Below, piece after piece: positions 1 through 48,745 of a DNA stretch of 48,745 bases. The position numbers and the translations under genes are program-made. Position 1 is the stretch's first letter. Each line of letters opens with the position of its first letter. Under the pieces are notes generated by a model. The model worked only from the letters and a program-made list of their open reading frames with translations, did no database searches and was not told the DNA's origin. The DNA comes from a virus, in IMG/VR virus record IMGVR_UViG_3300036046_000008. One strand, given 5' to 3'.

Positions 1-127
1 AGATTGACTACCGCCCCAAAAGCATCCACAGCGTATCTGGGGACTTCGGGGATCCTTCGAAAACCGGTCAACGAACCTCCTCGATCGGATGGAAATTAAC
101 GGTTTTGTAGGGTCGGGAAAAAGGGTC
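1..127. repeat. Window-end duplication: identical to 48619..48745 (terminal redundancy or circular-closure overlap)
   Basis: Direct reading: first 127 nt match last 127 nt exactly; repeat is truncated by the window edge so true length unknown. Confidence 0.9.
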
Positions 128-445
128 GGGAAAAACATCGATTTTCGACCCAAAAAGTTTTCTGGAGAACGTGTTTTTTTCTCTATTTTTTTTACTTTCC
201 AAAAAGTCTTAGAAAGGGGGTATATTTTTCCCGTTTTCCCGACCAAAATGTCCTAAATGTCCGATTTGTACACATTTTAGGCCCTCTTATTGACAATGAA
301 ACCCCCTGTTTTTGCACTAAAATTTTCAAATTTACCCTCTTTTTGGCCCTTTTTTGGCCAACATTTTTCCCGATTTCCCGACCAGTTTTCAAAAACGCTT
401 GGTATCTCATATTTTTCCCGACCCGAAATGTCCGTTTTGTCCTTT
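108..445. repeat. Non-coding AT-rich region with iteron-like repeats (GGGTCGGGAAAAA x2 direct; TTTTCCCGACC x3 inverted; AAATGTCC repeats)
   Basis: Seen in sequence at about 110-135, 228-252, 366-385, 413-442; no credible ORF; lies between last and first gene of the circularised map. Confidence 0.6.
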
Positions 446-508
446 TTTTAGCCTGGAAGATAAAACTAAAATGCCGTGTGGGCACCTTAGTTTTTTGGGG
501 GTGTGAGA

Positions 509-778
509 TCACTTCAGCTCTTCGTTAGCGATAATGATCTCCCATTTAAACTCGCTCATGAGTGTTTCTGCGTCTGGGGCATACTTCAATCCGTGAATGT
601 CAAGTTTGTCGTTGACTCGTCGGCCGGCGAGCTTGATCGCGGCAAGCTCTCGATAATGGTTCTCAAGAATCTCTTCGCGTGCAGCTCGTCCCGCCTGAAC
701 GGTCTTTGCAATCTTAACACCTGCAAGGGCGGAGGATGCCCCAACAACAATCACTCGGGCAAGATAATAGGGGTTCAT
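509..778 (-). CDS. hypothetical protein
   Basis: Track ORF 89 aa; ATG with GAAAGGACC RBS; conserved promoter element immediately upstream. Confidence 0.55.
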   Translation of the reverse strand: MNPYYLARVIVVGASSALAGVKIAKTVQAGRAAREEILENHYRELAAIKLAGRRVNDKLDIHGLKYAPDAETLMSEFKWEIIIANEELK

Positions 779-796
779 CTCGGTCCTTTCAAATAG

Positions 797-833
797 TAGG
801 GGGTCTCATTATATGCCCTGCAATTTTCGCGCG
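797..833 (-). promoter_or_regulatory. Conserved promoter-like element copy (TATAATGAGACCCCCTAC core)
   Basis: Minus strand reads CGCGCGAAAATTGCAGGGCATATAATGAGACCCCCTAC; abuts the tRNA 3' end and precedes gene 509..778. Confidence 0.6.
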
Positions 834-906
834 TGGGCCCCGTGGGACTCGAACCCACACCTTACGGATTAAAAGTCCGCTACTCTGCCAATTGAGCTAG
901 AGGCCC
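834..906 (-). tRNA. tRNA-Lys (anticodon UUU)
   Basis: Manual cloverleaf fold: 7-bp acceptor stem GGGCCTC/GGGGCCC, D-loop AATTGGCA, anticodon loop CTTTTAA, T-loop TTCGAGT, discriminator A; no encoded CCA. Confidence 0.85.
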
Positions 907-913: not shown

Positions 914-2062
914 TTACAAATATGCCGAGCGACTAGACTCGTTGAAAGAACGCTTTCGCCGAAGCGCTTCGCGAATTGCCCGATCCAGAGGCGCCGCACT
1001 CATCAACGTGTAGTAATATAACTTCTCATGCTGTGAGTCAAGACGATCGATTCGTCCTTGCGCTTGCTTATACATGCGATACGAATAAGTAAGCGAATAA
1101 AAGCACATAGCGTTAGTCTCAGTGCAATTCCATCCTTCGGCCCCGGCCAGATACTGCACCAAATATACCCAGGAATCTGAGGTCGGGATGTCTTCATGAC
1201 GATGCCCGTTCCATTCCGCAACTGCTACATCTTCGGCAAGCTCCCGCAGGATCGCAAGCTCATAGTCAAAGTTGTAGAATATAACTAAACGGGGATGTTT
1301 TTCCAGCAAAGCCCTCACCGCAAGGAACCTTGTCTCGTCCGTATTCAAGACCTTTCTTGCTACGTAGAAGGTGTTGGAGATAGTCTCGATCGGTGCCTCT
1401 TTGAAGACGTCCCAACGATCCCGCCACACCTGAATATACTTCTCACGGTCGTATTGCACAGGTGTTTCAACGAACTCTCGGTCAAGATGCGATCGGTAAG
1501 TCATCCCCACAAGAATCTGCGCACGCAGCTTGTACAGTTTGGTAAGACCAACGTAGCGATCGACTTTAGGGAACTTGGTAAAAGTATTGTACACGGCATG
1601 TTGCCGGGTGAAATCCGTCTTGTTCTTGTAGAACCCATTTGCGATAAAGACCGGAACGTAATCCATCCATGTGTCGCCCGGCGTTGCCGACAACAAAATC
1701 CAAGGGTTGTCTTTGACGACCTTCAGAAACGCCTTGACCCAGGCCCCATACCCAACCAGTCGCTGTTCGTCCGCAATGAGAAATATACCCTCAGCATCCG
1801 TATATTTCGCCAAGTTCTGCCAACTGTCGACGGTCAACTCCGTTACTCCTACCAAAGCCGCCTCTCGTTCCCAGTCACCGCTGTCCCGCTTCTTCGCAGT
1901 GGTGATGACAAGCAGCTTACGGTCACTGTGGTTCCGCTGGTAATATACCAGAGCGGTCAACGTCTTGCCCGAACCCACAGGACCATACAGAATCTTGCCC
2001 GTCGACAACTTCGCGAGAGCCTCCTCCTGATGCGGATATAGCTTCACGTGTCCGAGGTCCAT
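914..2062 (-). CDS. ATP-dependent helicase (SF2-like)
   Basis: Track ORF 382 aa; Walker A GPVGSGKT, Walker B-like LIADEQ, helicase motif VI-like QGRIDR; start overlaps upstream gene by 19 nt. Confidence 0.6.
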   Translation of the reverse strand: MDLGHVKLYPHQEEALAKLSTGKILYGPVGSGKTLTALVYYQRNHSDRKLLVITTAKKRDSGDWEREAALVGVTELTVDSWQNLAKYTDAEGIFLIADEQRLVGYGAWVKAFLKVVKDNPWILLSATPGDTWMDYVPVFIANGFYKNKTDFTRQHAVYNTFTKFPKVDRYVGLTKLYKLRAQILVGMTYRSHLDREFVETPVQYDREKYIQVWRDRWDVFKEAPIETISNTFYVARKVLNTDETRFLAVRALLEKHPRLVIFYNFDYELAILRELAEDVAVAEWNGHRHEDIPTSDSWVYLVQYLAGAEGWNCTETNAMCFYSLTYSYRMYKQAQGRIDRLDSQHEKLYYYTLMSAAPLDRAIREALRRKRSFNESSRSAYL

Positions 2063-2355
2063 GCAAGATTGGACGCGTTGTTGTAGAACGTATCCCCGTC
2101 CAGATGCGCGACAAGCCCGCCCGGCTCAAAACCAGGAACGAACGCCTTTGCGACGAGGCGGTGCACTACGCGCCAGGTGCGCCCGTCTGCATTGGTCAGT
2201 TGTACGGTCAAATAGGACGTCGTCGTGGCCCCTTCCTGCAACTTGAGCAAAGCGTATGGGACTAGCCTCTTCTTTTGAATATCGTAGACGCGCCCCCAGT
2301 CGCTCACAAGGTAGTTGGGGAATTCGGGGATCGCCAACCACTGCTCGAGATCCAT
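2044..2355 (-). CDS. HNH homing endonuclease (NUMOD4-like N-terminus)
   Basis: 103 aa; IPEFPNYLVSDWGRV N-terminal motif and C-terminal HLDGD...NN..NL HNH-like motif; paralog of 48153..48689; RBS GAAAGGAAG. Confidence 0.6.
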   Translation of the reverse strand: MDLEQWLAIPEFPNYLVSDWGRVYDIQKKRLVPYALLKLQEGATTTSYLTVQLTNADGRTWRVVHRLVAKAFVPGFEPGGLVAHLDGDTFYNNASNLAWTSDT

Positions 2356-2369: not shown

Positions 2370-2396
2370 GTAGGGGGTCTGATTATATGCTCGCAA
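2370..2396 (-). promoter_or_regulatory. Conserved promoter-like element, partial copy
   Basis: Minus strand TTGCGAGCATATAATCAGACCCCCTAC then GAAAGGAAG and ATG of 2044..2355. Confidence 0.5.
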
Positions 2397-2423
2397 GGCC
2401 GGCGGACAAAACTGTACCCCCAT

Positions 2424-2460
2424 GTAGGGGGTCTCATTATACAACATGTGATTCCCGCGA
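2424..2460 (-). promoter_or_regulatory. Conserved promoter-like element copy
   Basis: Minus strand TCGCGGGAATCACATGTTGTATAATGAGACCCCCTAC; overlaps stop codon of 2437..2895. Confidence 0.55.
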
Positions 2461-2895
2461 GACCGGCCAATAATATGGTAGATCCGCTGGCACCCCCGGC
2501 CACATCAGACTGTATCGACCTGGATCCTTCCGGATGAGATTGCTCTGATGCGAGCGATGAAATTCTTTGATCCCGTGCCACCACGGAACCTGGCGATCCG
2601 GGTATTCCTTTAGCATCTGTGTGAAATATGGCAGTAGAGAGTCTGCGTATCCACGGGTTCGCCAGACTCGGCAGGAGATCAGCCCATATGCGCAAAGCGA
2701 TCCCTCGTAGCCTTGCCACATGCGAGCTGCGGGATGCGTGCGCCACCCCTTAGTCTCCCCACGCAAAGCCTTGAGGATCTGCATCGTCTCGACCCGCTGC
2801 TTTCCAAGGCGTTTTTGGTCTAGACGTGTGAGTGATTCATAATAACCAATCTCAGGCAGAAAAGTGTTGACCATAAATATCTCCCTCCGAGGCAA
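2437..2895 (-). CDS. hypothetical protein
   Basis: Track ORF 152 aa; no motif recognised. Confidence 0.5.
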   Translation of the reverse strand: MPRREIFMVNTFLPEIGYYESLTRLDQKRLGKQRVETMQILKALRGETKGWRTHPAARMWQGYEGSLCAYGLISCRVWRTRGYADSLLPYFTQMLKEYPDRQVPWWHGIKEFHRSHQSNLIRKDPGRYSLMWPGVPADLPYYWPVSRESHVV

Positions 2896-2927
2896 AACTA
2901 AAACCCCTTGTGAGAGTTTTAGTTTTT
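2893..2927 (-). terminator. Terminator-like hairpin (conserved-loop family)
   Basis: Plus AAACTAAAAC-CCCTTGTGAGA-GTTTTAGTTT; between stop of 2938..3195 and start of 2437..2895. Confidence 0.45.
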
Positions 2928-4438: not shown

Positions 4439-4657
4439 AGCGCCTCCTACCGGATAATCGTGAATATAACCAGGATCCAGACCAAGACAATGAACGTGAT
4501 GACTAGCACGAATAGCAGGTCTTCCACATTTTGCTCTTTTCGCCGCAGGGGTTCCGGGCGCCTGTTGGTCGTTTAAGAGCCGCAGCTAGGTGCGAAACTT
4601 CTTCTGCGGATCCCCGACGAAAAATATAGACCATTGTTCAACGACTAAACAGTCGTT

Positions 4658-4690
4658 GTGGTCTCATTATAGACGATGTAAAATTCGCGA
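4658..4690 (-). promoter_or_regulatory. Conserved promoter-like element copy
   Basis: Minus strand TCGCGAATTTTACATCGTCTATAATGAGACCAC; adjacent perfect 8-bp hairpin at about 4638..4657; no ORF of 60 aa or more downstream. Confidence 0.5.
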
Positions 4691-13197: not shown

Positions 13198-13202
13198 TAG
13201 TC

Positions 13203-13239
13203 AAAAATAAAAACTAAAGATCCTTGTGGGGATCTTTAG
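13203..13239 (-). terminator. Intrinsic-terminator-like hairpin (conserved-loop family)
   Basis: Plus CTAAAGATCC-TTGTGG-GGATCTTTAG preceded by A-run, so U-tract on minus-strand RNA; downstream of 13253..13516. Confidence 0.55.
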
Positions 13240-13252
13240 CTCTGAGAGGTTC

Positions 13253-16456: not shown

Positions 16457-16460
16457 GTCA

Positions 16461-34937: not shown

Positions 34938-34947
34938 TGGTCACCAC

Positions 34948-35974: not shown

Positions 35975-36045
35975 CCGATGCGCACTGTTAAACGTGGCGA
36001 CAATTAGTTTAGGGGGCGGACTTTCGCCCGGTTCTCCGCCCCCGT

Positions 36046-36270
36046 CTAAGGGCGTTCAATGCAATCGCCGACATCAAGATTGTTAGGATCCAAACCAGGA
36101 TTTGCTTCCTTGATTTGATCAACGGTCACTCCCCACTCTTTGCTCAAGGACCAAAGCGTATCGCCTTTCTTGACCACATGCCCATCGCACGCCTCAGGAG
36201 TGACGTCTTCAATCGCGTCCGCAGTATCCCGAAGACCCTGAAGGAGAGCTCTCCATCGGGCATTACTCAT
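36046..36270 (-). CDS. LysM domain protein
   Basis: 74 aa; VVKKGDTLWSLSKEWGVTVDQIKEANPGL LysM-like block. Confidence 0.6.
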   Translation of the reverse strand: MSNARWRALLQGLRDTADAIEDVTPEACDGHVVKKGDTLWSLSKEWGVTVDQIKEANPGLDPNNLDVGDCIERP

Positions 36271-36309
36271 AGTACACAGTCTCCTTTGTTTGGACGGACG
36301 ACAAGATTA

Positions 36310-37131
36310 TTAGCCATCTTCTTCCATTTTGACCAGCTTGGCTTCAAGACGTTGAACCGTCTTCTCGATCTGCCGCAACCGCGCGTTCCCCATCATCGGA
36401 CTTGGATTGTTGGGGTCTCTCTTCTCGCCCTTAGCATTGTAGTCTCCTAGGGTCCGATTAATTCTTGCCGCAATAGCTTCAATGTCTTTCTCACTGAGAG
36501 CCACGTCTGTTTCGCCTCCTTCTTCCGAATTCCCTTGAGCAAGTCTGAGAACCTGGGGTAGATTCAACGCGCCAGTGTCCCAGTGCGAATTCTCTGGAAC
36601 CGAGGCATGCGGCAAATGGCCGCGAAAGGCTTTATAGGCTTGACCGGACAACCTCTGAGGCGCGCTCAGCCCATACCTGGGGTTGCGAGTAAACTTTGGT
36701 ACGAGAGCCAGAGGAATCCCCCAATGTTTATTCAACCAGAGCGCAATGCGAGCCAGAAACGCTAGGTGCTTCTCAGTGAAGTCTCCGACCCAAAGTCCTC
36801 GGTAACGATCGGACAGAACACGATCCGAAAACGAAATGACCTCAATCTGAAAAGCACGATCCGTGTTAGTCTCCACGCCGCCTGGCAGATTTGCCAAGGC
36901 GCGAGAAGACATATTAGCCGGGAAATGTTGACGAATCTGTTCAGTACGAGGATCAATGGTGATAGTTGGAGCGGTAGAGCCCCCAGAATAGCCCGGCCAG
37001 GAAGTACCCTCTGTCGTATGCCAGACACACTTGTACAACGCGTCCGACCAGACGACGCCGCGGTACTTATTCGCATACCACTGCGAAGACCGGTCTGCTC
37101 CAGGCAAATAGAGTTCAGTCATCGGCTTCAC
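36310..37131 (-). CDS. putative endolysin (amidase-like peptidoglycan hydrolase) with C-terminal coiled coil
   Basis: 273 aa; WHTTEG and NSHWDTG blocks; adjacent to LysM gene. Confidence 0.45.
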   Translation of the reverse strand: MKPMTELYLPGADRSSQWYANKYRGVVWSDALYKCVWHTTEGTSWPGYSGGSTAPTITIDPRTEQIRQHFPANMSSRALANLPGGVETNTDRAFQIEVISFSDRVLSDRYRGLWVGDFTEKHLAFLARIALWLNKHWGIPLALVPKFTRNPRYGLSAPQRLSGQAYKAFRGHLPHASVPENSHWDTGALNLPQVLRLAQGNSEEGGETDVALSEKDIEAIAARINRTLGDYNAKGEKRDPNNPSPMMGNARLRQIEKTVQRLEAKLVKMEEDG

Positions 37132-37315
37132 TCGCTTCGTCGAGTACGTCAGAGTCGACGGTCAGATCACTGTAATCCTCGTCCTCGACCGCCATATAGG
37201 CGTACTCCTTGTCGGAGAGTTCACGATCCGCATGAGCAGACGCAGACTCGAACGCGATTGGCTCATCTTCGATCACGGCGAACACCTCAATCTGTTGTAG
37301 GGAGGGAGAGGCCAT
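37115..37315 (-). CDS. small acidic protein
   Basis: Track ORF 66 aa, very acidic. Confidence 0.3.
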   Translation of the reverse strand: MASPSLQQIEVFAVIEDEPIAFESASAHADRELSDKEYAYMAVEDEDYSDLTVDSDVLDEASEADD

Positions 37316-37568
37316 ACGGCCAATTTTCGGACTGATTGACCCTTATTGAATCCATTATCACCTTAACCTCATGGTCAAATATCTGCAACCACACTAACGA
37401 CACAGCACAAACAAGACTAAGAACCAATGCCGAGACTAGGATTAAAGAAGCATCAGTAACAAGATGATGACCACCAGGATCAAAGTCATCACGCCAATAA
37501 AATCCGAACGCACCGATCTCACCTCCAGCCGTAGACGACGATCTACCCATACTTATGCTAACCCCCAA
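37287..37568 (-). CDS. membrane protein (holin candidate by position)
   Basis: Track ORF 93 aa with one long hydrophobic helix; just upstream of the amidase-like gene. Confidence 0.3.
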   Translation of the reverse strand: MGVSISMGRSSSTAGGEIGAFGFYWRDDFDPGGHHLVTDASLILVSALVLSLVCAVSLVWLQIFDHEVKVIMDSIRVNQSENWPYGLSLPTTD

Positions 37569-38710
37569 GTATTAGCCTTGGCGGCTTGTACCACATAGTT
37601 CCAAGACCACGACAAACGGAGCCGACCATCCGTAAACTGCGCGTAATCGGCTGCACCATCGTTACGTAGCATCAAGCTGGAAAAAGAGCCATCGCCAAGG
37701 CGTTGCCCATTAGCGTCGGAGATGTTGTACCACTTACCGTTCCCACCAGACGTGGAGGTTCTGGAGACGGAGTTCTGTCCACCAGGCTCTGGTCCTCCGG
37801 CGTCCGAATTCGAGACATGGATATTCGTTGTTACCGTTCCACTTGTACCAACGCCCGCCTTCTTGAACAAATATACCTCAGCGCTCGTGCAAGATCCTTT
37901 TAACTGACGATCCACACCGTTCGTGCCGAGACGATCGCGTAAGGCTCCGCGGACACCGTTACTACCATAGAAAATAACACCCTTATAGTTTCCGTAGGCG
38001 GCTGTGAAATAACCCTGTGCCGCGATGTTTGCTAGCCAAGACCAGCCATCAACTGGACGCCAAGAATCGACTTTACTCGGCTCAAAGACCATGTCCTGTC
38101 GGCTACCTTGATCGCGCTCCTCAGACCGCCCCGAATAGTAGGTGTAAATAGAACTGTTCAGCCCAAGAATCCCATTTCGGAACGGTCGGACATAAATATT
38201 GATAGATGTGTCTTCAGAAGTCGACACAGCTTTGCTGGTGCCGGTCTGAGTGCCAATAACAACGTTGTTCCGGCGAATTTCATAATGCGTCGCGCCAGGA
38301 ACGACGGCCCAAGACACGGTCACATTCGTCAGCGTTCTGGAAGAGGCTGAAAGCGCGCCAACTTTCCCTTTGGGAATTACCGCATTAATACTTACTGGCG
38401 ACTCAGTCCCAGGGACGCCAAATATGATCGGCGTAACCCGGTATGAGTAAGACGCACCCCAATCTAACCCGGAATCATTGTAAATGCGGCCGACTTGAGT
38501 CGCGATAAGCTCACCATTTCTACGAAGCTCATACAACTCAGCGTTAACCACTTCGTCCCAAGACACAGACAGTGTGCCCGCCGAAGACACCGAACTAATC
38601 TTGGGTTGCCCACCTTCGGCGAGGGGCCAAACTAGATCCTGCCCAAGCGCCACGAATAAGATTTGTTGCTCGCCGAGCTTGACATCGTCCGCAGTATTGA
38701 GAAGAGGCAT
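37553..38710 (-). CDS. minor tail protein with two fibronectin-III-like repeats
   Basis: 385 aa; repeated SVSWDEVVNAELYELRRNGELIATQ / VSWAVVPGATHYEIRRNNVVIGTQ blocks. Confidence 0.5.
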   Translation of the reverse strand: MPLLNTADDVKLGEQQILFVALGQDLVWPLAEGGQPKISSVSSAGTLSVSWDEVVNAELYELRRNGELIATQVGRIYNDSGLDWGASYSYRVTPIIFGVPGTESPVSINAVIPKGKVGALSASSRTLTNVTVSWAVVPGATHYEIRRNNVVIGTQTGTSKAVSTSEDTSINIYVRPFRNGILGLNSSIYTYYSGRSEERDQGSRQDMVFEPSKVDSWRPVDGWSWLANIAAQGYFTAAYGNYKGVIFYGSNGVRGALRDRLGTNGVDRQLKGSCTSAEVYLFKKAGVGTSGTVTTNIHVSNSDAGGPEPGGQNSVSRTSTSGGNGKWYNISDANGQRLGDGSFSSLMLRNDGAADYAQFTDGRLRLSWSWNYVVQAAKANTWGLA

Positions 38711-38713
38711 GAG

Positions 38714-39220
38714 TCACCCCACAACGACATAAAGCGTATCAGGATCTTTAGTAACAATCGCGTCATACTCGGCAAGGGTCCCGCTCCACCATTGGCCTGC
38801 CTCACCTTGAGGCCCCTGCTCACCTTGAGGCCCCTGCTCACCTTGAGGCCCCTGCTCACCTTGAGGCCCCTGCATCGGCCCGATGTTGACCCAATCAGAA
38901 CCATCCCAAATATAACCGTTGTTGGTGTCTTCGGTAATGTACAAATCGTTCAGATCAGCGCTAACCGGCAAATTTGCAAACGATGGCACAACTCCTACAA
39001 TAGTAACGCCCTCTCCACGAGGCCCAGGCGGACCGACAGGACCTTGGATGCCCTGAGGACCAGTCGCCAACGCTTCGCCGAGCTCTGAGAAGGGCGTAAT
39101 TCCATCCCCAATATAAAAAACTCTAAGATCGGTAACGAACCCGATCTCACCGTCTAGCAAGATAGGATTTGAGTTGAGCCATTCGCTTTCAGTTCCTCGC
39201 CGAATTCGAATTACATACAT
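38714..39220 (-). CDS. tail fibre protein with collagen-like (GPQGEQ)x4 repeat
   Basis: Track ORF trimmed to ATG with AAGGAG RBS; N- and C-termini paralogous to 40245..41804. Confidence 0.6.
   Translation of the reverse strand: MYVIRIRRGTESEWLNSNPILLDGEIGFVTDLRVFYIGDGITPFSELGEALATGPQGIQGPVGPPGPRGEGVTIVGVVPSFANLPVSADLNDLYITEDTNNGYIWDGSDWVNIGPMQGPQGEQGPQGEQGPQGEQGPQGEAGQWWSGTLAEYDAIVTKDPDTLYVVVG
38801..38872. repeat. Perfect tandem repeat, 18 bp x 4 (CTCACCTTGAGGCCCCTG)
   Basis: Seen in sequence; encodes GPQGEQ collagen-like triplets in 38714..39220. Confidence 0.9.
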
Positions 39221-39240
39221 CAAACGCTCCTTACCCGTAG

Positions 39241-40224
39241 CTACTTGGAGAGCCACGCACAATCGGAAGAAGCCAGCGACTTAAGAAATTCCCGCGTCCG
39301 TGGTTCACCATCAGCCAGATACCAATTAACGCCCGGACGGTTATTCCGCGTCGAATTAAACCAAGCCACAGTCATAAATCGTTTGGAAGCCACGATAACC
39401 GACCAAGTAGAAACCCATTCGTCAGCAGTATGCGTACCAGTTTCGCCGAAACCAAACAAACCAGCGTACCGAGCCCGCTCTGCCCACTTCAGAATTCGGC
39501 CCACGCGGTTTGCGGGCCCATCTTTGGGGTCGCTAAGGGTGCCGCCGTGATAGACGTCCATTCCTAAAAGCTTCCAGCGCTCCAACAAATCTTGGGGGAA
39601 CCATTCAGCAATCTCAGTGTCAGTCCACGTGTCATGCGCGCCCCAAGGAAATCCATTCATGATAGGGCACAACGTTACTTGGCCAGTGCCACCAAGCCGA
39701 TCCGCAACATCCAGAAGACGCCGCCAGGTACGTGTATAGTGATCATACGTCATGTCGCCCACGGGCTCATGCGCCCACGTGATCAATGCCGGTTGAGACC
39801 ATGTCTGGTACTCCAAAACCCGACGCTCAAAATCAGCGTCAGTAAAATTAAGGCCCGAAAACGATCCCCACGGCAACGAGCCCCGTGCCCACGCCGTCTG
39901 CGCCACTGACCGTTCTTTTTCAAGCTCGGTCGGCTTACAATAATAACGCTGCACACCAGGCAAGCCTAGACGAGCAACTTCATCTTCGTAAGTAGGCAGA
40001 GGGTGGGCCCATCCGAGATAAATCTTGCTCGGCTGATGACCCGGGATCACCCCTTCGGAAGGCTCGCCGTCACCGGGATCGGAACCGCCGTCTTCGTCAG
40101 GCTCGTCTAGACGGGCAAGTACTTCCATTTTGAAGTCCAAAAACTGCTTTTCAAAATTCTCTTGCTGCGCCTTTGCGCTGGCCTTATACTCTTCAAACTC
40201 AGCCGAGGTCGGGACTTCAACCAC
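39241..40224 (-). CDS. tail-associated protein, possible glycoside hydrolase-like domain
   Basis: 327 aa, Trp-rich; between two fibre genes; function is a guess. Confidence 0.35.
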   Translation of the reverse strand: MVEVPTSAEFEEYKASAKAQQENFEKQFLDFKMEVLARLDEPDEDGGSDPGDGEPSEGVIPGHQPSKIYLGWAHPLPTYEDEVARLGLPGVQRYYCKPTELEKERSVAQTAWARGSLPWGSFSGLNFTDADFERRVLEYQTWSQPALITWAHEPVGDMTYDHYTRTWRRLLDVADRLGGTGQVTLCPIMNGFPWGAHDTWTDTEIAEWFPQDLLERWKLLGMDVYHGGTLSDPKDGPANRVGRILKWAERARYAGLFGFGETGTHTADEWVSTWSVIVASKRFMTVAWFNSTRNNRPGVNWYLADGEPRTREFLKSLASSDCAWLSK

Positions 40225-40244
40225 AACGATCTCCTTTGACGGGG

Positions 40245-41804
40245 CTAGACGATTGCATACAATGTGTTTGGATCTTTAGTGCCAATTGCATCATAAGCGG
40301 CCTGGGACCCTACCCATTGACGCCAAACCGTCTGGCCATCTTCTTTAATGCGGCCACCAACGAGATTCACGTCGTTAGCTGGAGTAAGCTGCAAATCCCC
40401 GCCAGTTAACTGCTCGACAACCGTCTGGTCAGCCTCTGTAGAATTTCGAATCTCCAAAGTGCTGCCCACGGTACGAATGCCTTTGTTGAAGTTAACTCGC
40501 CCAAGAACCCCAATCCGCATTTGAACAGCGCCAGCGAGATTCAAAACTTCGAGCATGTTGCCGGAGCCGCCCTCGGCTTGATCCCGAGCAATGATCTTCA
40601 TAGCCACTTCACCAGGAGCGGCGTCATTCGACGTCCTAAGGTTCCCCTTCTCGTTGACCCACGTCGCTCGTTTACCCCCGTACCGAATGTCCACAATGTC
40701 AGCGTCGGTAATGGTGGTGGACGTCGCCGTCCGCTCAACCACCAAACCGCCTACATCTTTACTCGAATTGATGATTGTCATCTTGCGGCGCAGCGTCGTT
40801 CCGTTTAGGCCCACACCCATAATAATGTCCCCAACATTACGGGCCTCGCGGACCTCAAAGAAGTCACCCAGAGAAGCTGGTGTCGACCCACTCTTGAACC
40901 CATGCACACGCAAAGCCACAGTGCTATCTTTGGCCGGATCGAACCTGCCTTCGCCGAACTCATTAAATCCACCAGTGCGGACACCATCGTACTTGAAATG
41001 CAACCGATCAGGCCAGTTCGCAGCCGGCGACGCATCGTTCACAATATTGAACTGTGCAACCTGCATGTTCGTGGGGTCGGTAATGGCATAATCCGCGTCA
41101 GTCTTGGGGCGCTGTTGCCACAAATATCGAGCGTTAGCGGTGCCCTCAGTGATACCGCTGCCGCCAACCAGAATAGCCCAGGCCCCGTTCTGTCTTACAT
41201 ACTGTTGGCCATCATTAGGAGCCTCCTCGACTGCGTCGTCTGGGGCGACTGTTACAGCCCAAGTCCCGTTTTGCCGCACGTATTGCGATCCATTACTTGG
41301 GGCGTCTCTCAAATATTGCGTATGAGGATTGGTGGCAGCGGTGTGCTGCGACAGCAAAGTCGACGCCACGCCGACGTTCTCTTTCCCGGCCAGAGCAGTA
41401 TTAAAAACCGCGCCGTCGGCAACGGACAAATATCGCTCATCAATATCCAGCCAGAAATTGTTATACCGCGCATAGATGGTGCCATCGGCGGGGGCATCGG
41501 TAATTCCAGCCCCTCCCCCACCGACTACGGCAGTCCAGGTCCCATCTCGCCGAGCGTATTGTTCGCCATCCAGGGGTGCTTCTTCAACAGGTCCTGGCGG
41601 GCCAACCGGTCCGTCTTCACCGGGAGGACCAGGAATCCCTGTAGTATAAGGGAGCTCAGTCCAAGGAGTAACCCCATCACCGATCTTGAACTGATTAAGA
41701 TCTGTGACATATGCAGGTTCACCGGAACTGAGAATTGGGTTAGCCAGAGTCCACTGTGCATCGGTGCCCCGGCGAAGACGAATAGTGAAAGGTTGAATTG
41801 TCAT
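40245..41804 (-). CDS. tail fibre protein with short collagen-like segment and triple DG.QYVRQNG.WA repeats
   Basis: 519 aa; GIPGPPGEDGPVGPPGP; three internal repeats; termini paralogous to 38714..39220. Confidence 0.6.
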   Translation of the reverse strand: MTIQPFTIRLRRGTDAQWTLANPILSSGEPAYVTDLNQFKIGDGVTPWTELPYTTGIPGPPGEDGPVGPPGPVEEAPLDGEQYARRDGTWTAVVGGGGAGITDAPADGTIYARYNNFWLDIDERYLSVADGAVFNTALAGKENVGVASTLLSQHTAATNPHTQYLRDAPSNGSQYVRQNGTWAVTVAPDDAVEEAPNDGQQYVRQNGAWAILVGGSGITEGTANARYLWQQRPKTDADYAITDPTNMQVAQFNIVNDASPAANWPDRLHFKYDGVRTGGFNEFGEGRFDPAKDSTVALRVHGFKSGSTPASLGDFFEVREARNVGDIIMGVGLNGTTLRRKMTIINSSKDVGGLVVERTATSTTITDADIVDIRYGGKRATWVNEKGNLRTSNDAAPGEVAMKIIARDQAEGGSGNMLEVLNLAGAVQMRIGVLGRVNFNKGIRTVGSTLEIRNSTEADQTVVEQLTGGDLQLTPANDVNLVGGRIKEDGQTVWRQWVGSQAAYDAIGTKDPNTLYAIV

Positions 41805-41813
41805 GAGCTTCTC

Positions 41814-42206
41814 CTAGGGGCTGCCGCCGTCGATCAGCACAGTGTCAAACGGGAGGGGTGGACTCCAAGCATTGCCCTCGCGATAAACGTTTAGGCGCCA
41901 TTCCATCTCTCGGAGCTGGTCCTCAAGCGCATTGATGAGGAACGACGTATTCGGAGGATCGAAAAGTAGACGCACGCGAAGATAGACGTAAGACTTAACC
42001 GGATTGAGCATCTGAGAATTGCCCAGAAGCTCTTCCCAAGTCGTTTCGGGCCCTTCGACAGAGAACCCCTCTGCAGGGCCGATCCCCAACTGACTTACGT
42101 ACATCAACGCCGAATTAATGTGCGTCATAATGTCTAAGTCGAAGACGGTGTACTCCTCGGCAAGACCAAGAATCTTCTTTGTACTGGTCAAGATACTGTC
42201 AGTCAT
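41814..42206 (-). CDS. hypothetical protein
   Basis: Track ORF 130 aa. Confidence 0.5.
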   Translation of the reverse strand: MTDSILTSTKKILGLAEEYTVFDLDIMTHINSALMYVSQLGIGPAEGFSVEGPETTWEELLGNSQMLNPVKSYVYLRVRLLFDPPNTSFLINALEDQLREMEWRLNVYREGNAWSPPLPFDTVLIDGGSP

Positions 42207-42245
42207 TGGGGCGAACCTCCTTAAAAGCTTCCATTTTGATTGGTG

Positions 42246-42653
42246 CTACCAAAGCTTAGTATCATTAGGACGGCGGGGAACATAGGGTTTCGGGAGTAAA
42301 TTCCGATCGCCGTAATGGATTGCGTTATGAGTATCATGAGTCGTAGTGATCAAGAACTCCGGATCCAAAACCTCGTCCCGTCCGTGAACTAAATCTTCGA
42401 CAGTGACTGGGTTCATATGATGAATGTAAGCACGCTCATAAATCTCATACCCGACGACACCAAGATCACAACCCAGATCTCTTGCAATGACGTGGGTCCG
42501 AAGTGCTCGCCATTGAGCCGACATGTAGAAGCGTTGATTCAACCAACGATCGTGTCCGAACGTAGACAACCCAACAGATCCACGCAGAACCAAATAGTCA
42601 AATCTATCTTCAAACTGACTCATCTGAATCAGCTCGGTATAACGTCTAACCAT
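42246..42653 (-). CDS. HNH endonuclease
   Basis: IHHMNP ... HDTHNAIHYG HNH-like motif; track ORF 42246..42710 trimmed to ATG with GAGG RBS. Confidence 0.55.
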   Translation of the reverse strand: MVRRYTELIQMSQFEDRFDYLVLRGSVGLSTFGHDRWLNQRFYMSAQWRALRTHVIARDLGCDLGVVGYEIYERAYIHHMNPVTVEDLVHGRDEVLDPEFLITTTHDTHNAIHYGDRNLLPKPYVPRRPNDTKLW

Positions 42654-42975
42654 TGTATGCCTCGTCAGTGTGACCGGAATACGACCGCATAGCGTCGAGA
42701 ACGCTTTCATAGAGCTCTTCTACTCGCTTGGCCGACTCCAACAACTCCGTCTTAGAATCTAGCAACTTGTTCTCACGGGCCAGCTTTTCCTGTTCCAAGG
42801 CTTCACGAGTGGACCCAAGACGCAGATAGTGAGTAATCACTTGCGCGGTGGCAGTACCATCTCGGAGCTGCTTCTCAGCGAGATTAGTAGCTAACAACAC
42901 GAGGCGCTGCTCTTGTTCTTCAGGAGTCCGTGCCGGCGGGCGCCGCGGTTCCGACTCCTTGCGGCGTTGCGCCAT
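42646..42975 (-). CDS. hypothetical protein (charged, coiled-coil)
   Basis: Track ORF 109 aa. Confidence 0.45.
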   Translation of the reverse strand: MAQRRKESEPRRPPARTPEEQEQRLVLLATNLAEKQLRDGTATAQVITHYLRLGSTREALEQEKLARENKLLDSKTELLESAKRVEELYESVLDAMRSYSGHTDEAYNG

Positions 42976-42987
42976 AACAACTCCTTT

Positions 42988-43422
42988 CTATCCTTTGTGG
43001 CGACGGAGTGTCTTTCGTCCCCCATGCTCAATGTGCATCGAGGTCGCCACCAAACCGCCGGTCAGAATTAGAAGCAAGACCACGACTTCGCCGACGCCAT
43101 CGATCAAGTTAGTTTCGAGCCCTGAGAAGAATAAGATGATGGTTAAGATCGCTCCGAAAACCATCATCAGATAGGCCCAACGAGTCACAACGACAAAGCG
43201 ATTAAAACTATGGCCCCACATAAATACCAATGCAACCACCGACAACGTACCCACGAAATACTCAAGAGTCCGTTCGGCGGAGCCTACGATAAAAAACGTT
43301 GGCGAGAAACCAAACACGATCAACGCAAGGTTGTAAGCCGTCAGAGAACACACAGCGGTCCAAAAAGCTTGCTCACGGCCAAACAAAGCAAAGAAACGCT
43401 GCTCAATCGGTTTTGGAGTCAT
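42988..43422 (-). CDS. multi-pass membrane protein (paralog of 43597..44046)
   Basis: Track ORF 42988..43590 trimmed to ATG with GAGAAGGAAAG RBS; shares WAYL block. Confidence 0.45.
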   Translation of the reverse strand: MTPKPIEQRFFALFGREQAFWTAVCSLTAYNLALIVFGFSPTFFIVGSAERTLEYFVGTLSVVALVFMWGHSFNRFVVVTRWAYLMMVFGAILTIILFFSGLETNLIDGVGEVVVLLLILTGGLVATSMHIEHGGRKTLRRHKG

Positions 43423-43594
43423 CTTTCCTTCTCTCTGGCAAGGGATGTTTGGCCTCCCAAAGATCCATTCGATGTTTGATCCACCTGCGTAGAGTCTCGA
43501 TGAGAATCGTAACCAACCCAGCCAACGCAAAGTAGAGAAGAGCCAAAGGATCCGTTCCTGAAGGCGGTGCCTGAAAAAACAGTAAAACAACCAT
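43403..43594 (-). CDS. small membrane protein
   Basis: Track ORF 63 aa; ATG after GGAGG RBS; TM helix then charged tail. Confidence 0.4.
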   Translation of the reverse strand: MVVLLFFQAPPSGTDPLALLYFALAGLVTILIETLRRWIKHRMDLWEAKHPLPERRKDDSKTD

Positions 43595-43596
43595 GG

Positions 43597-44046
43597 CTAC
43601 CTCCGCCTGAGATAGCGATCAAGTTGAGAAGAAAGAGGACGACCAGCGCCACCGTCTAGCAAGTGCGCTCCTGCCGCCCCGACAATGCCGATACAAATTG
43701 TAAAACCAATTACAATTTTAGCGTTAGGCGGGACAATGACCTGAGTAGGTGCAACTATCAGGAACGCCACAAGGACAGTAAGCCCATAACCCACAACAAA
43801 GAGATAGGCCCACTGGTTCAGAAAAATATAGGGGCGCTCCAACAAACGGCCTATGAGAAGAATCGTAAGAACCACGCCAACAACCGCAAACACGATTTCG
43901 ATGGACGTCAACGTGTTAACTTCCGGTTCGAGCCCGGGCAATGGTCTAAAAATAGGAAGAAGCACAAACAAGATCAGAGTGATCTGATAGATAACAAGGT
44001 CCGCAATGATAGCTATGACCGTTGTTACGTCTCTACGGAGTTTCAA
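43597..44046 (-). CDS. multi-pass membrane protein
   Basis: 149 aa, 3-4 hydrophobic helices; TTG start after TAAGGAGGGG. Confidence 0.5.
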   Translation of the reverse strand: MKLRRDVTTVIAIIADLVIYQITLILFVLLPIFRPLPGLEPEVNTLTSIEIVFAVVGVVLTILLIGRLLERPYIFLNQWAYLFVVGYGLTVLVAFLIVAPTQVIVPPNAKIVIGFTICIGIVGAAGAHLLDGGAGRPLSSQLDRYLRRR

Positions 44047-44267
44047 GGAGCCCCTCCTTAAAAGTTTTGAGGCACTTCGACAGGGGTTTTACACACTTTC
44101 TACGACCAAAAATCAACTTTTAAGGACCGTCAAGTCTGCGAAGAAAGCTTTTGGCATAGTTTGGCCCCACTTTTACCCCCTCAAACGACCCGCCGGAGAA
44201 ATTTTAGGGACGCGGCGATATGGAGGGGGTCTCGGTTTTGGCGGGCCCTCCCCCCTATTTTAATTTT

Positions 44268-44531
44268 TTAATTCGTTGTTTGCGACGAGGAGTAAACTTT
44301 TCGGTATTTACCTAAAAGGTTGTAGGTCACAATCTCGTCAATAGCTTGCTGTACTGCTTCTTTCTGTTGTTCTTCTGAAAGTTCGAAGGAAACTCTCGCG
44401 ACTCGAGCCAGCAGGCTAAGAGTGTGGTACCCCGATCGACGATCAAAAGCTTCCCACTCTTTGAAGTGGGTGAAAGGATTCCACGGATTGTCAGTAGTAG
44501 TTAACATCGCGTAAGTGTTATCACTCATCAC
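44268..44531 (-). CDS. hypothetical protein
   Basis: Track ORF 87 aa; GTG start, TAGGAGAA RBS. Confidence 0.55.
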   Translation of the reverse strand: MMSDNTYAMLTTTDNPWNPFTHFKEWEAFDRRSGYHTLSLLARVARVSFELSEEQQKEAVQQAIDEIVTYNLLGKYRKVYSSSQTTN

Positions 44532-47221: not shown

Positions 47222-47235
47222 GATCTTATCTCCTC

Positions 47236-47796
47236 TCAGGATCGGGCTTCTTCCTTAATGGATTCGATGCGCTTGTCAAAAGTGATAATCCGATCCATGA
47301 CGTGAAAGATAACGTCAGCATCAGGATGGTGTACACGCACCTCATTGTTCTGGTAGATCCGCAGCTCAGTTTCAAAGTCTACGGGGTTCATCTTATATTC
47401 AAGGCAGAAGAGGCCCACGTAAATCTCGAGTTGATGATACGAGGCGGGAACCGTCCCAGTCTTCAAATCATGGACACGAAGGACATTACGTCGAAAAGAA
47501 ATACAGTCCGCGTGCCCAAACGCATTATCCGAGTAATATAGTGGTTGCTCAGGCGTCATGCGGTAGCCGATTCCGTCGTTCACGTAACTGTTCAATGAAC
47601 CGGAAGTATCCGGAAGTCTAACGCCGAGACGGATCGCTTGATGCGCAAAACTATGCAACTCTGTTCCACGTTTCGCAGCTTGCGAAGCCAAGAACGCCCG
47701 GTCAAGTTTCTCGTCCGAGTAGTTTAACCAGTGGTACCGGCTCGGACTTAAAAACGCATGCTGATCCCTAATGCGTGAATGCATATTGAAGATCAT
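47236..47796 (-). CDS. PD-(D/E)xK nuclease (RecB/Cas4/YqaJ-like)
   Basis: 186 aa; GHADCISF ... VHDLKTG ... YHQLEIY motif order. Confidence 0.45.
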   Translation of the reverse strand: MIFNMHSRIRDQHAFLSPSRYHWLNYSDEKLDRAFLASQAAKRGTELHSFAHQAIRLGVRLPDTSGSLNSYVNDGIGYRMTPEQPLYYSDNAFGHADCISFRRNVLRVHDLKTGTVPASYHQLEIYVGLFCLEYKMNPVDFETELRIYQNNEVRVHHPDADVIFHVMDRIITFDKRIESIKEEARS

Positions 47797-48064
47797 TCAA
47801 AACCTCTTCTTCATTCTCGGGAGAGATAAAAGCCGCAAACGACATCTGGCCGAGCATCTGGACGTAGTATGCTTGATTAGGACGACGACGAGAATTTAAG
47901 GATGACTTAACCTCAAGCATCGCCCATCGTGACCCAAACAAAACCAAAAGATCAGGCAACCCCTGACGGTTTTGCGGATCGTTCTTAATCACAACGCAAC
48001 CAGGAAACATTTGCTTGAGCGCGTCAACGACGTGGCGTTGAAAGCGCGACTCACGAACAGCCAT
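47768..48064 (-). CDS. VRR-NUC-like PD-(D/E)xK nuclease
   Basis: 98 aa; GLPDLLVLFG ... AMLEVKS. Confidence 0.45.
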   Translation of the reverse strand: MAVRESRFQRHVVDALKQMFPGCVVIKNDPQNRQGLPDLLVLFGSRWAMLEVKSSLNSRRRPNQAYYVQMLGQMSFAAFISPENEEEVLNDLQYAFTH

Positions 48065-48152
48065 CGAACCTCCCTCGCCCGACGAAAGAGCAAAATCAAA
48101 AAGGCTTTATCTAGGTCCTTTATCTATTATATGCGAGGTATGCGCCGGGAGG

Positions 48153-48689
48153 TTATATGCTTTTTTGGTCAGATCGCGCGAAGAACGCAAAACGGTAAGA
48201 AGTTGGGAACGCCGGCTCGCCTTCTTGAATAGACGCAAAAAGATCATGAAGGAGGATCCCGTAGAACATGCACGTGATCCAAGCGTTCCCCACAACCTCG
48301 TTCGTGTCCAAGTTGATCACTTGTTTACGTCGCACCCACGAATATGGCCAGAACGTATATAGACCAAGACGATGACCTTGATGGTGGTACTTCATCGCGA
48401 ACCATCGAGGGCGCCAAGACAAATTATCGACATGCGAGTTCGATAGGTCGTAATCGTGATGTATGACACTATCAAAGTATTCGGACGGCGGGGGATCTAA
48501 GAAAGCGCGTGCCACAAGAAACGCAACCGGGCAAATGCGTCGCTCACCGTTGACATACAAACCCACATAGTAACGACCCTGTTGGTTTGAGCAAGGACGG
48601 AGCAGTCGATCTGTGTCGAGATTGACTACCGCCCCAAAAGCATCCACAGCGTATCTGGGGACTTCGGGGATCCTTCGAAAACCGGTCAA
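48153..48689 (-). CDS. HNH homing endonuclease (NUMOD4-like N-terminus)
   Basis: 178 aa; IPEVPRYAVDAFGAVVN and HHDYDLSNSHVDNL; TTG start after GAGGAGG RBS; 5' end lies inside the terminal duplication. Confidence 0.6.
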   Translation of the reverse strand: MTGFRRIPEVPRYAVDAFGAVVNLDTDRLLRPCSNQQGRYYVGLYVNGERRICPVAFLVARAFLDPPPSEYFDSVIHHDYDLSNSHVDNLSWRPRWFAMKYHHQGHRLGLYTFWPYSWVRRKQVINLDTNEVVGNAWITCMFYGILLHDLFASIQEGEPAFPTSYRFAFFARSDQKSI

Positions 48690-48745
48690 CGAACCTCCTC
48701 GATCGGATGGAAATTAACGGTTTTGTAGGGTCGGGAAAAAGGGTC

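Follow-up and report, generated by a model that had tools for sequence, protein, structure and literature searches.

Here we analysed a stretch of 48,745 nucleotides from the IMG/VR virus record IMGVR_UViG_3300036046_000008 (the window, meaning hereafter this stretch at its full length), which encodes a tailed phage with all of its genes on the minus strand, and we focus on its gene for a predicted single-subunit RNA polymerase and on a promoter-like repeat found in eleven copies. Bases 1-127 are identical to bases 48619-48745 over the whole 127 nt, and the sequence is hence a circularly closed assembly of one complete genome with a unique length of 48,618 bp and a G+C content of 51.6%. The physical orientation is taken as the minus strand read from the predicted cohesive-end (cos) site near position 44207. 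Read in this way, the map passes through a late block (44.0-17.6 kb), an early and middle region (17.6-0.5 kb), a non-coding region with repeats (461-72), an HNH gene and the polymerase operon (endonuclease, exonuclease, polymerase and small protein), whose end is 50 nt short of cos. The late block comprises, in this order, membrane proteins, an HNH gene, a tail-fibre module, an endolysin-like gene, TerL, portal, a protease-capsid fusion, tail genes, the tape measure protein, Dit and a Gp37-like protein. The coordinates of all features are collected in Table 1.

Genome identity and strand uniformity

Since a megablast search of 15 kb against INPHARED returned no nucleotide-level match, relatives were sought by protein search. 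TerL proved to be 74-76% identical to that of the Streptomyces cluster BI phages, and the 893-aa polymerase protein was 50-58% identical to the last large gene in 250 phage records, which include phages of Arthrobacter, Gordonia, Streptomyces, Rhodococcus, Microbacterium and Curtobacterium, Lactococcus 1706-like phages, Faecalibacterium FP_oengus and human-gut siphoviruses. Most of these groups (Streptomyces BI, with Scap1, Rima and Scarif among others, Arthrobacter AM/AU/AW, with Circum, Gordonia DJ, Rhodococcus CC, with ReqiPepy6, Microbacterium EL, Lactococcus 1706 and FP_oengus) form a supercluster described in a preprint (bioRxiv 10.1101/842583), and its phages have also been covered in surveys of Arthrobacter, Microbacterium and Rhodococcus phages (PMC5513430, PMC7302621). 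The right-end module defined there as the hallmark of the supercluster (bioRxiv 10.1101/842583) is present in order in the window, with helicase, HNH, endonuclease, RecB exonuclease, the helix-turn-helix (HTH)/polymerase protein and the small conserved protein, and so is the left module with HNH, connector/structural protein, TerL, portal and the fused protease-capsid gene, a fusion typical of the family (PMC5513430). The endolysin-like gene is placed upstream of the terminase, and the tail genes are followed by numerous small genes in an array (39-125 aa, 17.6-13.2 kb), both traits, the small genes often encoding membrane proteins, having been described for clusters AM, AU, CC and EL in the phage surveys. 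The genome is that of a complete siphovirus, probably of the cos type, and a member of the published supercluster, whose phages carry a YonO/QDE-1-like two-barrel RNA polymerase; the tape measure protein named in a preliminary description of the window, made from its letters alone, was confirmed by Pfam.

With the rest of the supercluster the genome shares the gene order (endolysin and small genes, TerL, portal, protease-capsid, tail, tape measure protein, small-gene array, large primase-polymerase, helicase, HNH, endonuclease, RecB exonuclease, polymerase, small protein and cos), the co-orientation of the genes, a homologous cos region and the same promoter family. It differs from the BI phages in its G+C content (51.6% against approximately 59-61% in those listed), in possessing a tRNA-Lys where the BI phages have no tRNA, and in an extra tail-fibre module of about 5 kb (Mtd_N, collagen-like) between cos and the endolysin. 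A host scan of genome contigs yielded only five matches to metagenome-assembled genomes or prophages, at 45-55% identity (Scandinavium sp., maybe a binning artefact, Atopobium, an unnamed bacterium isolate, Clostridiales and Butyrivibrio), which support no host call.

The preliminary description had called the genome strictly unidirectional, and this was borne out by the gene model, ribosome-binding sites, homology, tRNA, promoters, terminators and GC skew alike. We let a 3-periodic Markov gene model train itself on seeds from either strand, 13 open reading frames (ORFs) of at least 150 aa from the plus and 37 from the minus strand; it settled on 50-56 genes, every one of them on the minus strand. 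Among the ORFs of at least 60 aa the coding score was positive for 55 of 109 on the minus strand and for 1 of 108 on the plus strand, and a match of at least five of six bases to AGGAGG preceded a start in 63/109 and 6/108 ORFs, respectively. The start-refined map holds 62 confident minus genes, which cover 88% of the genome, and not one plus gene; with about eight further minus ORFs backed by homology or membrane character the total reaches roughly 70 genes in one orientation. The minus strand also bears the tRNA-Lys, all 11 promoter copies and all 8 strong terminators of the hairpin-plus-T-run type, and the plus-strand GC skew is negative in 48 of 48 windows of 1 kb.

The ORFs of the plus strand were examined by similarity as well. 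A PHROG search of 20 of them (the 10 longest and 10 from weakly coding regions) gave no match, while most of the minus ORFs tested had one. Within the weakly scoring stretches the minus ORFs (membrane proteins, HNH, conserved small genes) score near zero and the plus ORFs between -7 and -32. When searched by tblastn against 85 related loci, 42 plus ORFs found matches, always on the antisense strand of the relative and opposite a conserved gene, and the opposing minus gene scored higher per aligned residue, with the exception of short plus ORFs opposite the most conserved protein cores. Judged from these alignments the matching plus ORFs are shadow ORFs, none having independent homology support, in agreement with the earlier claim that plus-strand ORFs lie antisense to minus-strand genes.

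If genes were oriented independently, chance could not remotely account for some 70 of them pointing the same way. The statistic by itself is nevertheless unremarkable, as genes inherit their orientation in blocks and co-orientation is found in many phage groups. The annotated genes lie on one strand in Scap1 (56/56), in Lactococcus 1706 (76/76, that is 71+5), in Circum (88/88 in 50 kb of genome) and, with the exception of an integrase and one inserted gene, in FP_oengus (77/79). Co-orientation is a family trait. A greedy count of the longest ORFs per strand over the relatives was abandoned for annotations and tblastn, as it misleads at high G+C and produced 11 false reverse ORFs in Scap1 despite its 56/56 forward genes. 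In two related loci (L033 near 13369 and L038 near 13495, both on the reverse strand downstream of the polymerase gene) a reverse cassette with its own promoter copy and terminator stands just after cos. Such cassettes, present in a few relatives, indicate that the one-way layout is a rule and no absolute constraint, and that the promoter travels with its gene. The combination of a one-way genome and an RNA polymerase in a siphovirus, pointed out in the preliminary description, is not unprecedented and consists of two supercluster traits; the genome is a new member of a described phage group, for which the one-way layout is ordinary.

The polymerase gene and the repeated promoter family

Sequence profiles revealed little of the 893-aa protein, and fold comparison was decisive. 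Pfam detected only HTH segments near both ends and no RNA_pol domain (PF00940), hmmscan for RdRP (PF05183) gave no match at E <= 0.001, and a sequence-profile search of the PDB found no solved homologue for the catalytic core, matches being obtained by the fold search alone. In an AlphaFold2 model (mean predicted local distance difference test score, pLDDT, 76.9), Foldseek matched Neurospora QDE-1 (E 8.6e-9), plant RDR2 (E 3e-6) and the non-virion gp62 of Thermus phage P74-26 (E 5.5e-6), the probability being 1.00 for all three, and more weakly the largest subunits of cellular polymerases; TM-scores of only 0.27-0.34 are what one expects of multidomain proteins so distantly related. The catalytic DxDGD loop (GADFDGD at residues 512-518) is invariant in 37 aligned homologues. 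An earlier HHpred match of the family alignment to RdRP (P = 95.7%) had already led to the proposal of a two-barrel placement in the 2021 preprint (bioRxiv 10.1101/842583). On the strength of the modelled fold the protein is a two-barrel RNA polymerase of the YonO/QDE-1 type and not of the T7/N4 type, its activity being predicted; of the RNA polymerase-like gene with T7/N4 logic put forward in the preliminary description, the phage polymerase gene is real and the kinship with T7 and N4 fell away, given the two-barrel fold and the lack of a Pfam RNA_pol match. The resemblance of the HTH ends to sigma-70 region 4 is faint (E 0.007-0.04, below cut-offs) and gives a hint only, such Pfam families being listed for many homologues.

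With at least 8,000 homologues at E <= 1e-5 in a set of 5.8 billion proteins, the polymerase is abundant in nature. Most GenBank records name the homologue a helix-turn-helix DNA-binding protein, others an 'RNA-dependent RNA polymerase'; a paper of September 2026 still took it for an RNA-virus-type curiosity. The invariant disordered N-terminus of the polymerase HYGILRRSGRYPWGSGG (HYG...WG) was considered as an instance of Pfam DUF7211, which it resembles by eye, and was rejected because the Pfam model did not match it. The DUF7211 motif (LAHYGVKGMKWGVR) does occur at the N-terminus of the gene just before TerL (34948-35358, residues 7-25) and twice in the pre-portal gene (31617-32375), and may be a shared capsid-targeting or processing signal.

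Repeat finding uncovered a direct repeat of 37-47 nt, always on the minus strand, with the consensus TCGCGAAAATTGCATGCCGTATAATGAGACCCCCTAC followed by a GAAAGGA-type ribosome site and a start codon. Its pattern, TCGCR-N6-WACA-N5-TATAAT, sets three boxes (CGC, ACA and TATAAT) about one helical turn apart. With 24 specified bases and at most 3 mismatches, 7 copies were found against 0 expected, and a search with a 12-mer core gave ten cleanly aligned copies, all at 17.6-0.8 kb and each 25-35 nt before a start codon. A position weight matrix (PWM) was built from the ten sites of the genome and iterated over the related loci; it brought out an eleventh, weaker variant copy (48150-48114) before the endonuclease gene. 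The dedicated promoter set suspected from the window alone is thereby substantiated, with 11 copies in the genome and a distribution over the whole family. The hexamer is TATAAT in 10 of the 11 copies and TATAGT in one, and the conserved elements upstream of it are TCGC at 13-14 nt and WACA at 5 nt; no TTGACA-like -35 hexamer was found 16-18 nt upstream of the -10 box, where nothing is conserved. The purine-rich bases right after the box (GAGACCCC, AGAAGGAG, AGAAAG, GGAAGG) are conserved even where there is no ribosome site. Conserved purine-rich bases in this place are typical of promoters of phage polymerases that start right after the AT box.

Two of the copies, 8 and 9, stand in tandem 54 nt apart, and a hairpin after copy 8 uses that copy's own transcribed ACCCCCTAC box (ACCCCCTACATGGGGGT) with a T-rich stretch; it may be an attenuator or yield a very short transcript. 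The repeated 9-mers TCAAAATGG and TTATATTTG were considered as a further motif in common with FP_oengus and discarded once they could be traced to coding sequence and to the context of start codons.

The family is distributed over the relatives with pronounced strand specificity. The PWM scan of all relatives (1.03 Mb) gave 178 matches on the gene strand and 5 on the other. In the IMG/VR relatives there were 136 and 0, respectively, in the 478 kb upstream of the polymerase gene, and 0 and 4 in the 145 kb downstream of it (the late region), the four reverse matches being those of reverse-oriented inserted cassettes. Of 84 relatives, 77 have a copy upstream of the polymerase gene, which in about 65 cases occupies the same place as in the window (-860 to -1060), and the copies before the polymerase operon follow a sub-consensus TATAAT-AGAAGGAGTAGAA. 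The consensus reads TCGCGTAAATTACAnGGGCTATAAT in Circum, TCGCAAGTTTTACAnGCCTTATAGTGAGACCCCTAC in Scap1, yCrCATGTTTTACATAyACTATAGTAGAAAGAAGG in 1706 and ACGCGAAAAATrCAGCCTCCTTTATGGAAGG in FP_oengus. The spacing of CGC, ACA and TATAAT is identical in the Streptomyces, Arthrobacter, Lactococcus and Faecalibacterium phages, and the structural regions of Circum, Scap1, 1706 and FP_oengus contain no copy. FP_oengus has CTTTATGG in the place of TATAAT and hence no -11 A, which sigma-A needs. The conservation and strand specificity of the promoter family are shown across relatives from five or more host genera. In the literature searched, neither the promoter family nor the cos-proximal element nor the one-track logic was found described, which is not proof that no such description exists.

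Reading of the promoters and of the late block

Eight hairpin-plus-T-run terminators, each directly after a gene, are interleaved with the promoters in the early and middle block, and the first kilobase after the tail genes consists of four cassettes of promoter, tiny gene and terminator. Seven of the terminators share their stem ends (CTAAAG/CTTTAG) and the loop CCyCACAAGG, which suggests either that duplication has multiplied the cassettes or that some factor recognises the loop. The 26-kb late block, by contrast with this signal-rich half, has no promoter copy in the PWM scan and no strong terminator in the terminator scans. The sequential transcription suggested in the preliminary description may be read from this layout. 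A late promoter was looked for, but no candidate emerged. The first late ORF of several relatives begins only 45-70 nt after cos, which leaves little room for one, the RNA fold of the left-end region (44205-44040) is no better than that of shuffled sequence (z = -0.7), and an Rfam scan detected only the tRNA. A weak GTAGAAAG/GTAGAGACC likeness at the left ends of the genome, 1706 and Scap1 was not used as evidence.

The model we consider most likely, at a probability of about 0.5, is that the phage polymerase reads the repeated promoters. The argument for the phage enzyme is that the copies lack a -35 element, that their CGC and ACA boxes are not elements of sigma-A, that the architecture is kept across two host phyla while the -10 box of FP_oengus has drifted to CTTTATGG, and that the purine-rich bases after the box are conserved. 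Furthermore, the set of genes that all supercluster phages share (per bioRxiv 10.1101/842583) offers no candidates for a role in transcription other than the polymerase and the small protein behind it. A siphovirus, P23-45, has virion and non-virion two-barrel polymerases with promoters of their own (PMC10770324), and YonO transcribes a long late operon from a single start site (PMC5467207).

In the mechanism that we propose, the promoters would be recognised by the phage polymerase itself, perhaps through its HTH ends, and not by the host sigma-A polymerase. The enzyme would be carried in the virion and start the programme on entry, like those of N4, crAss-like phages and P23-45, and the promoterless late genes would be served by transcripts that run on from the polymerase operon over the joined cos site. 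Late transcription across the joined cos site is known from phage lambda. Such read-through would demand that all genes point one way, and late expression would have to wait for circular or concatemeric DNA; since this promoter also precedes the polymerase's own operon, positive feedback would turn the enzyme into a switch. The complete scheme, with a self-sufficient virion-delivered polymerase, HTH segments in the role of sigma, a three-part promoter, positive feedback and late genes gated by circularisation, is offered tentatively, and we hold it to be rather doubtful as a whole.

Several observations weigh against the reading of the promoters by the phage enzyme. Most copies carry a perfect sigma-A -10 hexamer, TATAAT, and in Actinobacteria a -10 element alone can suffice. 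The interleaved terminators are of the type that stops host polymerase, and the HTH matches of the 893-aa protein fall below the Pfam curated cut-offs. The presence of the same promoter type before the polymerase operon means that a polymerase-only model needs either virion delivery or leaky host transcription. Delivery in the virion may be hinted at by the product name of one distant homologue (37% identity), orf75 of Lactococcus 1706 (EU081845), which its depositors called 'structural protein', a note copied in ReqiPepy6 gp106; labels of this kind in the 1706 record presumably derive from virion mass spectrometry. The late genes are probably reached by read-through, a weakly founded point in that it is drawn from the absence of signals, and the start sites of the promoters are predicted from sequence. 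In addition, YonO, the only tested relative of its type, reads late and not early genes (PMC5467207).

Much of the same evidence would also fit a division of labour like that of SPbeta, in which host sigma-A polymerase reads the promoters, as -10-only promoters, for the early and middle genes including the polymerase, and is confined by the intrinsic terminators, while the phage enzyme starts near its own gene or cos and transcribes the late block. In SPbeta the late genes are transcribed as one operon by YonO (PMC5467207). The perfect TATAAT of most copies, the restriction of classical hairpin-plus-T terminators to the promoter-bearing region and the late block devoid of a promoter in every relative examined agree with this division, and the promoter before the polymerase operon in 77/84 relatives would remove the bootstrapping problem. 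On the other hand, it leaves unexplained the fixed spacing of CGC and ACA elements foreign to sigma-A, the missing -35 element at 16-18 nt, the FP_oengus copies without the -11 A and the conserved sequence right after the box. The architecture is moreover kept in Lactococcus and Faecalibacterium phages, where -10-only promoters are expected to be weak, as is generally known of Firmicutes promoters, and no candidate late promoter presented itself from which the phage enzyme would start. We regard this division of labour as possible, though doubtful.

That the layout reflects no special transcription logic at all appears improbable to us. Co-orientation would then be inherited, or kept for co-directional replication and transcription, and the polymerase-like protein would have another task, such as replication priming, the synthesis of regulatory or small RNAs, or regulation through DNA binding, in line with its annotation in most records. 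Full or almost full co-orientation is indeed seen in many phage groups unrelated to one another (PMC5513430, PMC7302621), the GC skew is uniform genome-wide, most GenBank records speak of a helix-turn-helix DNA-binding protein, and the polymerase gene lies among nucleases and helicases. Against this stand the invariant DxDGD loop and a fold that matches active two-barrel polymerases, the co-occurrence of the promoter family with the gene over two phyla, which calls for a shared recognition protein, and the reverse cassettes, whose promoter is turned round with them, so that the signal follows the genes and not replication. A literal T7- or N4-type programme, in which a Pol-I-like polymerase pulls in or sweeps the genome from its leading end through T7-like promoters, is very improbable, and for the type of polymerase it is refuted by the Pfam scan and the fold search. 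The genome is one-way and the promoter core CTATAGTGAGAC resembles by eye the T7 core CACTATAGGGAGA; however, none of the 10 largest proteins matched Pfam RNA_pol, the fold is two-barrel, and the polymerase gene is the penultimate one of the map and not an early gene of the leading end. Neither is there a giant virion polymerase of the N4 type, the largest proteins being the tape measure protein (1421 aa) and the primase-polymerase (1233 aa), both of which lack a T7-like polymerase domain, and the repeated hairpins follow genes and carry T-runs, which makes them terminators and not hairpin promoters, while the promoter repeat forms no hairpin.

With the phage polymerase as the favoured reader of the promoters, the system would work like the phage-polymerase programmes of T7, N4, crAss-like phages, P23-45 and SPbeta. 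YonO of the Bacillus prophage SPbeta is likewise a phage-encoded single polypeptide of about 100 kDa with a DxDGD catalytic loop, and it transcribes a long promoter-poor late operon from one start (PMC5467207), to be compared with the promoter-free late block here; the accessible part of that paper reports no HTH ends, whereas the 893-aa protein has HTH segments near both. Neither tblastn nor Pfam detected sequence similarity between the two proteins, and the YonO promoter is undefined whereas the supercluster offers about 180 candidate sites. The genome of SPbeta is not known to be one-way. P23-45 and P74-26 are also siphoviruses with a tape measure protein, gp62 of P74-26 being a top structural match, and their gp64/gp62 non-virion and gp96 virion polymerases, the latter fused to the tape measure protein, read dedicated pre-early, early and middle promoters (PMC10770324); the genome studied here differs in its single polymerase gene, a tape measure protein without polymerase domain, the HTH ends and unrelated promoter sequences. 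A likeness to N4 and crAss-like phages, where a virion-packaged polymerase starts early transcription from phage-specific promoters, is possible and, as regards packaging, rests here on the 1706 annotation; the crAss enzyme is also two-barrel. The virion polymerase of N4 is T7-like, of approximately 3,500 aa, and uses hairpin promoters, and the crAss gp66-type enzyme is a giant multidomain protein of a podovirus. With T7 the genome has in common the one-way layout, an own polymerase and a long conserved promoter in which a TATA-type core is followed by a purine-rich start region, but the polymerase folds are unrelated, the polymerase gene is found next to cos at the map's trailing end where T7 has it at the leading end, and we deal with a siphovirus with predicted cos ends and with promoters confined to half of the genome.

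The YonO paper of 2017 (PMC5467207) left two questions: which promoter is recognised and whether extra factors are needed. About 180 aligned candidate promoter sites of fixed architecture, strand-specific and co-inherited with the polymerase over two phyla, now stand beside fold and motif evidence that, with the 2021 preprint, places the polymerase next to YonO, QDE-1 and the P23-45 polymerases. The repeated promoter is a testable candidate recognition site for an abundant, uncharacterised polymerase family, and as culturable relatives exist on Streptomyces, Arthrobacter, Gordonia and Lactococcus the question can be addressed directly. If the phage enzyme does read it, a promoter would for the first time be defined in the YonO-like polymerase branch, and the complete scheme would amount to a new way to time a phage programme; we consider the lead moderately interesting.

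The cos region and further features of the map

Table 1. Positions of the features of the window, numbered from its first base
Feature	Position	Strand	Remarks
Terminal overlap	1..127	none	marks circular or concatemeric assembly, not a biological terminal repeat; cos ends of relatives lie elsewhere in the map
Non-coding region, 390 nt	72-461 (core 110..423)	-	three direct (double) and two inverted GGTCGGGAAAAA-type repeat copies
Terminator hairpin	462..495	-	closes early/middle region before the non-coding repeats; same stem ends and loop family
Promoter copy 10	796..832	-	directly downstream of tRNA-Lys, precedes gene 778..509
tRNA-Lys, anticodon UUU	833..906	-	ARAGORN; Rfam 70.3 bits
DNA helicase	914..2062	-	phrog_62, E 8e-60; conserved in 74 relatives
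HNH endonuclease genes (three)	2044-2355, 42246-42653, 48153-48689	-
Promoter copy 9	2370..2406	-	degenerate upstream half; precedes HNH gene 2355..2044
Promoter copy 8	2424..2460	-	hairpin 2432-2416 directly after, then copy 9
Terminator hairpin	2894..2927	-	CTAAAG/CTTTAG family
Promoter copy 7	4654..4690	-
Primase/helicase-polymerase fusion, 1233 aa	6524..10225	-	phrog_4210, 1842 bits; Pfam DUF5906/Pox_D5
Terminator hairpin	13201..13243	-	CTAAAG/CTTTAG family, 14 pairs
Promoter copy 6	13534..13570	-	perfect consensus; precedes gene 13516..13253
Terminator hairpin	14576..14616	-	CTAAAG/CTTTAG family
Promoter copy 5	14876..14912	-	TATAGT variant; precedes gene 14855..14628
Terminator hairpin	16429..16459	-	12 pairs and T-run
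Promoter copy 4	16660..16696	-	precedes 60-aa gene 16643..16461
Terminator hairpin	16707..16747	-	CTAAAG/CTTTAG family, 15 pairs
Promoter copy 3	16919..16955	-	precedes 47-aa gene 16904..16761
Terminator hairpin	16963..16996	-	CTAAAG/CTTTAG family
Promoter copy 2	17139..17175	-	precedes 44-aa gene 17136..17002
Terminator hairpin and T-run	17228..17270	-	repeated family (CTAAAG...CCCCACAAGG-type loop...CTTTAG)
Promoter copy 1	17594..17630	-	PWM 21.3 bits; first after late block, precedes gene 17580..17296
Late block, about 31 tightly packed genes	17621..44046	-	Pfam, PHROG, gene map
Tape measure protein, 1421 aa	19837..24081	-	Pfam TMP_3
Fused prohead protease and major capsid protein	27670..29625	-	Peptidase_S78 and Phage_capsid in one ORF
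Portal protein	30285..31577	-	Pfam Phage_portal
Terminase large subunit	33192..34937	-	Pfam TerL_nuclease, E 1e-32
Endolysin-like gene	36310..37131	-	phrog_17214; upstream of terminase
Collagen-like tail fibre protein	38714..39220	-	exact 18-bp x4 tandem repeat 38801-38872 encoding GPQGEQ repeats
Tail fibre, 519 aa	40245..41804	-	Mtd_N, fibritin-like and Phage_tail_C; upstream of terminase; Pfam, PHROGs
Predicted cos region	44189..44257	-	right-end G/C-rich element TAGGGGGGAGGGCCCGCCAAAACCGAGACCCCCTCCATAT at 44257-44218
Predicted cos, left-end element	44207-44189	-	CTAAAATTTCTCCGGCGGG
Predicted cos, overhang-like part	44217-44208	-	CGCCGCGTCC
Small conserved protein, phrog_4303	44268..44528	-	last gene before cos, always after the polymerase gene; conserved in 78 relatives
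Two-barrel (YonO/QDE-1-like) single-subunit RNA polymerase (predicted), 893 aa	44540..47221	-	phrog_4291, 1280 bits
RecB/Cas4-type exonuclease	47236..47796	-	phrog_3953, E 2e-73
Endonuclease, first gene of polymerase operon	47768..48064	-	phrog_93; conserved in 83 relatives
Promoter copy 11	48114..48150	-	class B, TATAAT-AGATAAAGGA; PWM 13.3 bits; before the endonuclease-exonuclease-polymerase operon

The cos site at 44257-44189 is a prediction, placed by homology within an assembled circle. The alignment takes in the genome ends of Scap1, Circum and 1706 as well as IMG/VR contigs, by the dozen, in which the sequence either breaks off at ...CTGCAT or continues through the joined site. The conserved site at which these contigs end, or which they cross, reads ...TAGGGGGGAGGGGTCTCGCAAAAnnnACCCCCCTCCTGCAT / CGCCGsCCT / CCTAAAAATTTCCCCGGsGG..., its central part being the 9-nt 3' overhang known from the BI phages (CGCCGCCCT, PMC6256688). 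An inverted element of a G-run and a C-run, GGGGGGAGGGGTCTCGCAAAAnnnACCCCCC, is conserved 15-45 nt from the right end in dozens of relatives (44218-44257 here; L004, L006-L085), and its loop TCTCGCAAAA resembles the upstream half of the promoter (TCGCrAAAA). This element could be a binding site of the terminase or of the polymerase HTH segments, or the end signal of the polymerase operon. Five relatives of low G+C (L048, L052, L060, L061 and L068) have an inverted repeat, forming a hairpin of about 130 nt, 100-250 nt after cos, which is not present in this genome; it encloses a conserved GTGGTGAyCC...CTCCTTTCAAGAG core, with a tRNA-like 3' end there as well in L068, and may be a structured RNA or DNA element.

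The non-coding region at 72-461, which sits between the last early terminator and the HNH gene and polymerase operon, could be an origin of replication or a regulatory region. The small phrog_4303-type protein before cos has been named a core gene (bioRxiv 10.1101/842583), and an endolysin upstream of the terminase is likewise found in clusters AM, AU and EL (PMC5513430). The extra tail-fibre module (37553-41804, between cos and the endolysin), absent from Scap1, also includes two large ORFs without clear matches. Three paralogues (24471-25085, 25094-25783 and 26365-27024) match the major-tail-protein family phrog_2645, and at the same place Scap1 and Circum have two genes annotated as 'major tail protein'. 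The minus-strand ORF 35345-35974 (209 aa), which separates the pre-TerL gene from the endolysin region, is atypical in its codon usage (score -5.5), lacks a PHROG match and a counterpart in the relatives, and is probably a recently acquired gene; its C-terminal ...NADHRAVIVTF resembles by eye the endonuclease/exonuclease/phosphatase signature. Two of the HNH genes, at 2044-2355 and at 48153-48689, have their PHROG matches in common and are thus likely paralogues, and two paralogues of phrog_2152, of unknown function, lie in the early and middle region (11547-12581 and 15329-16117).

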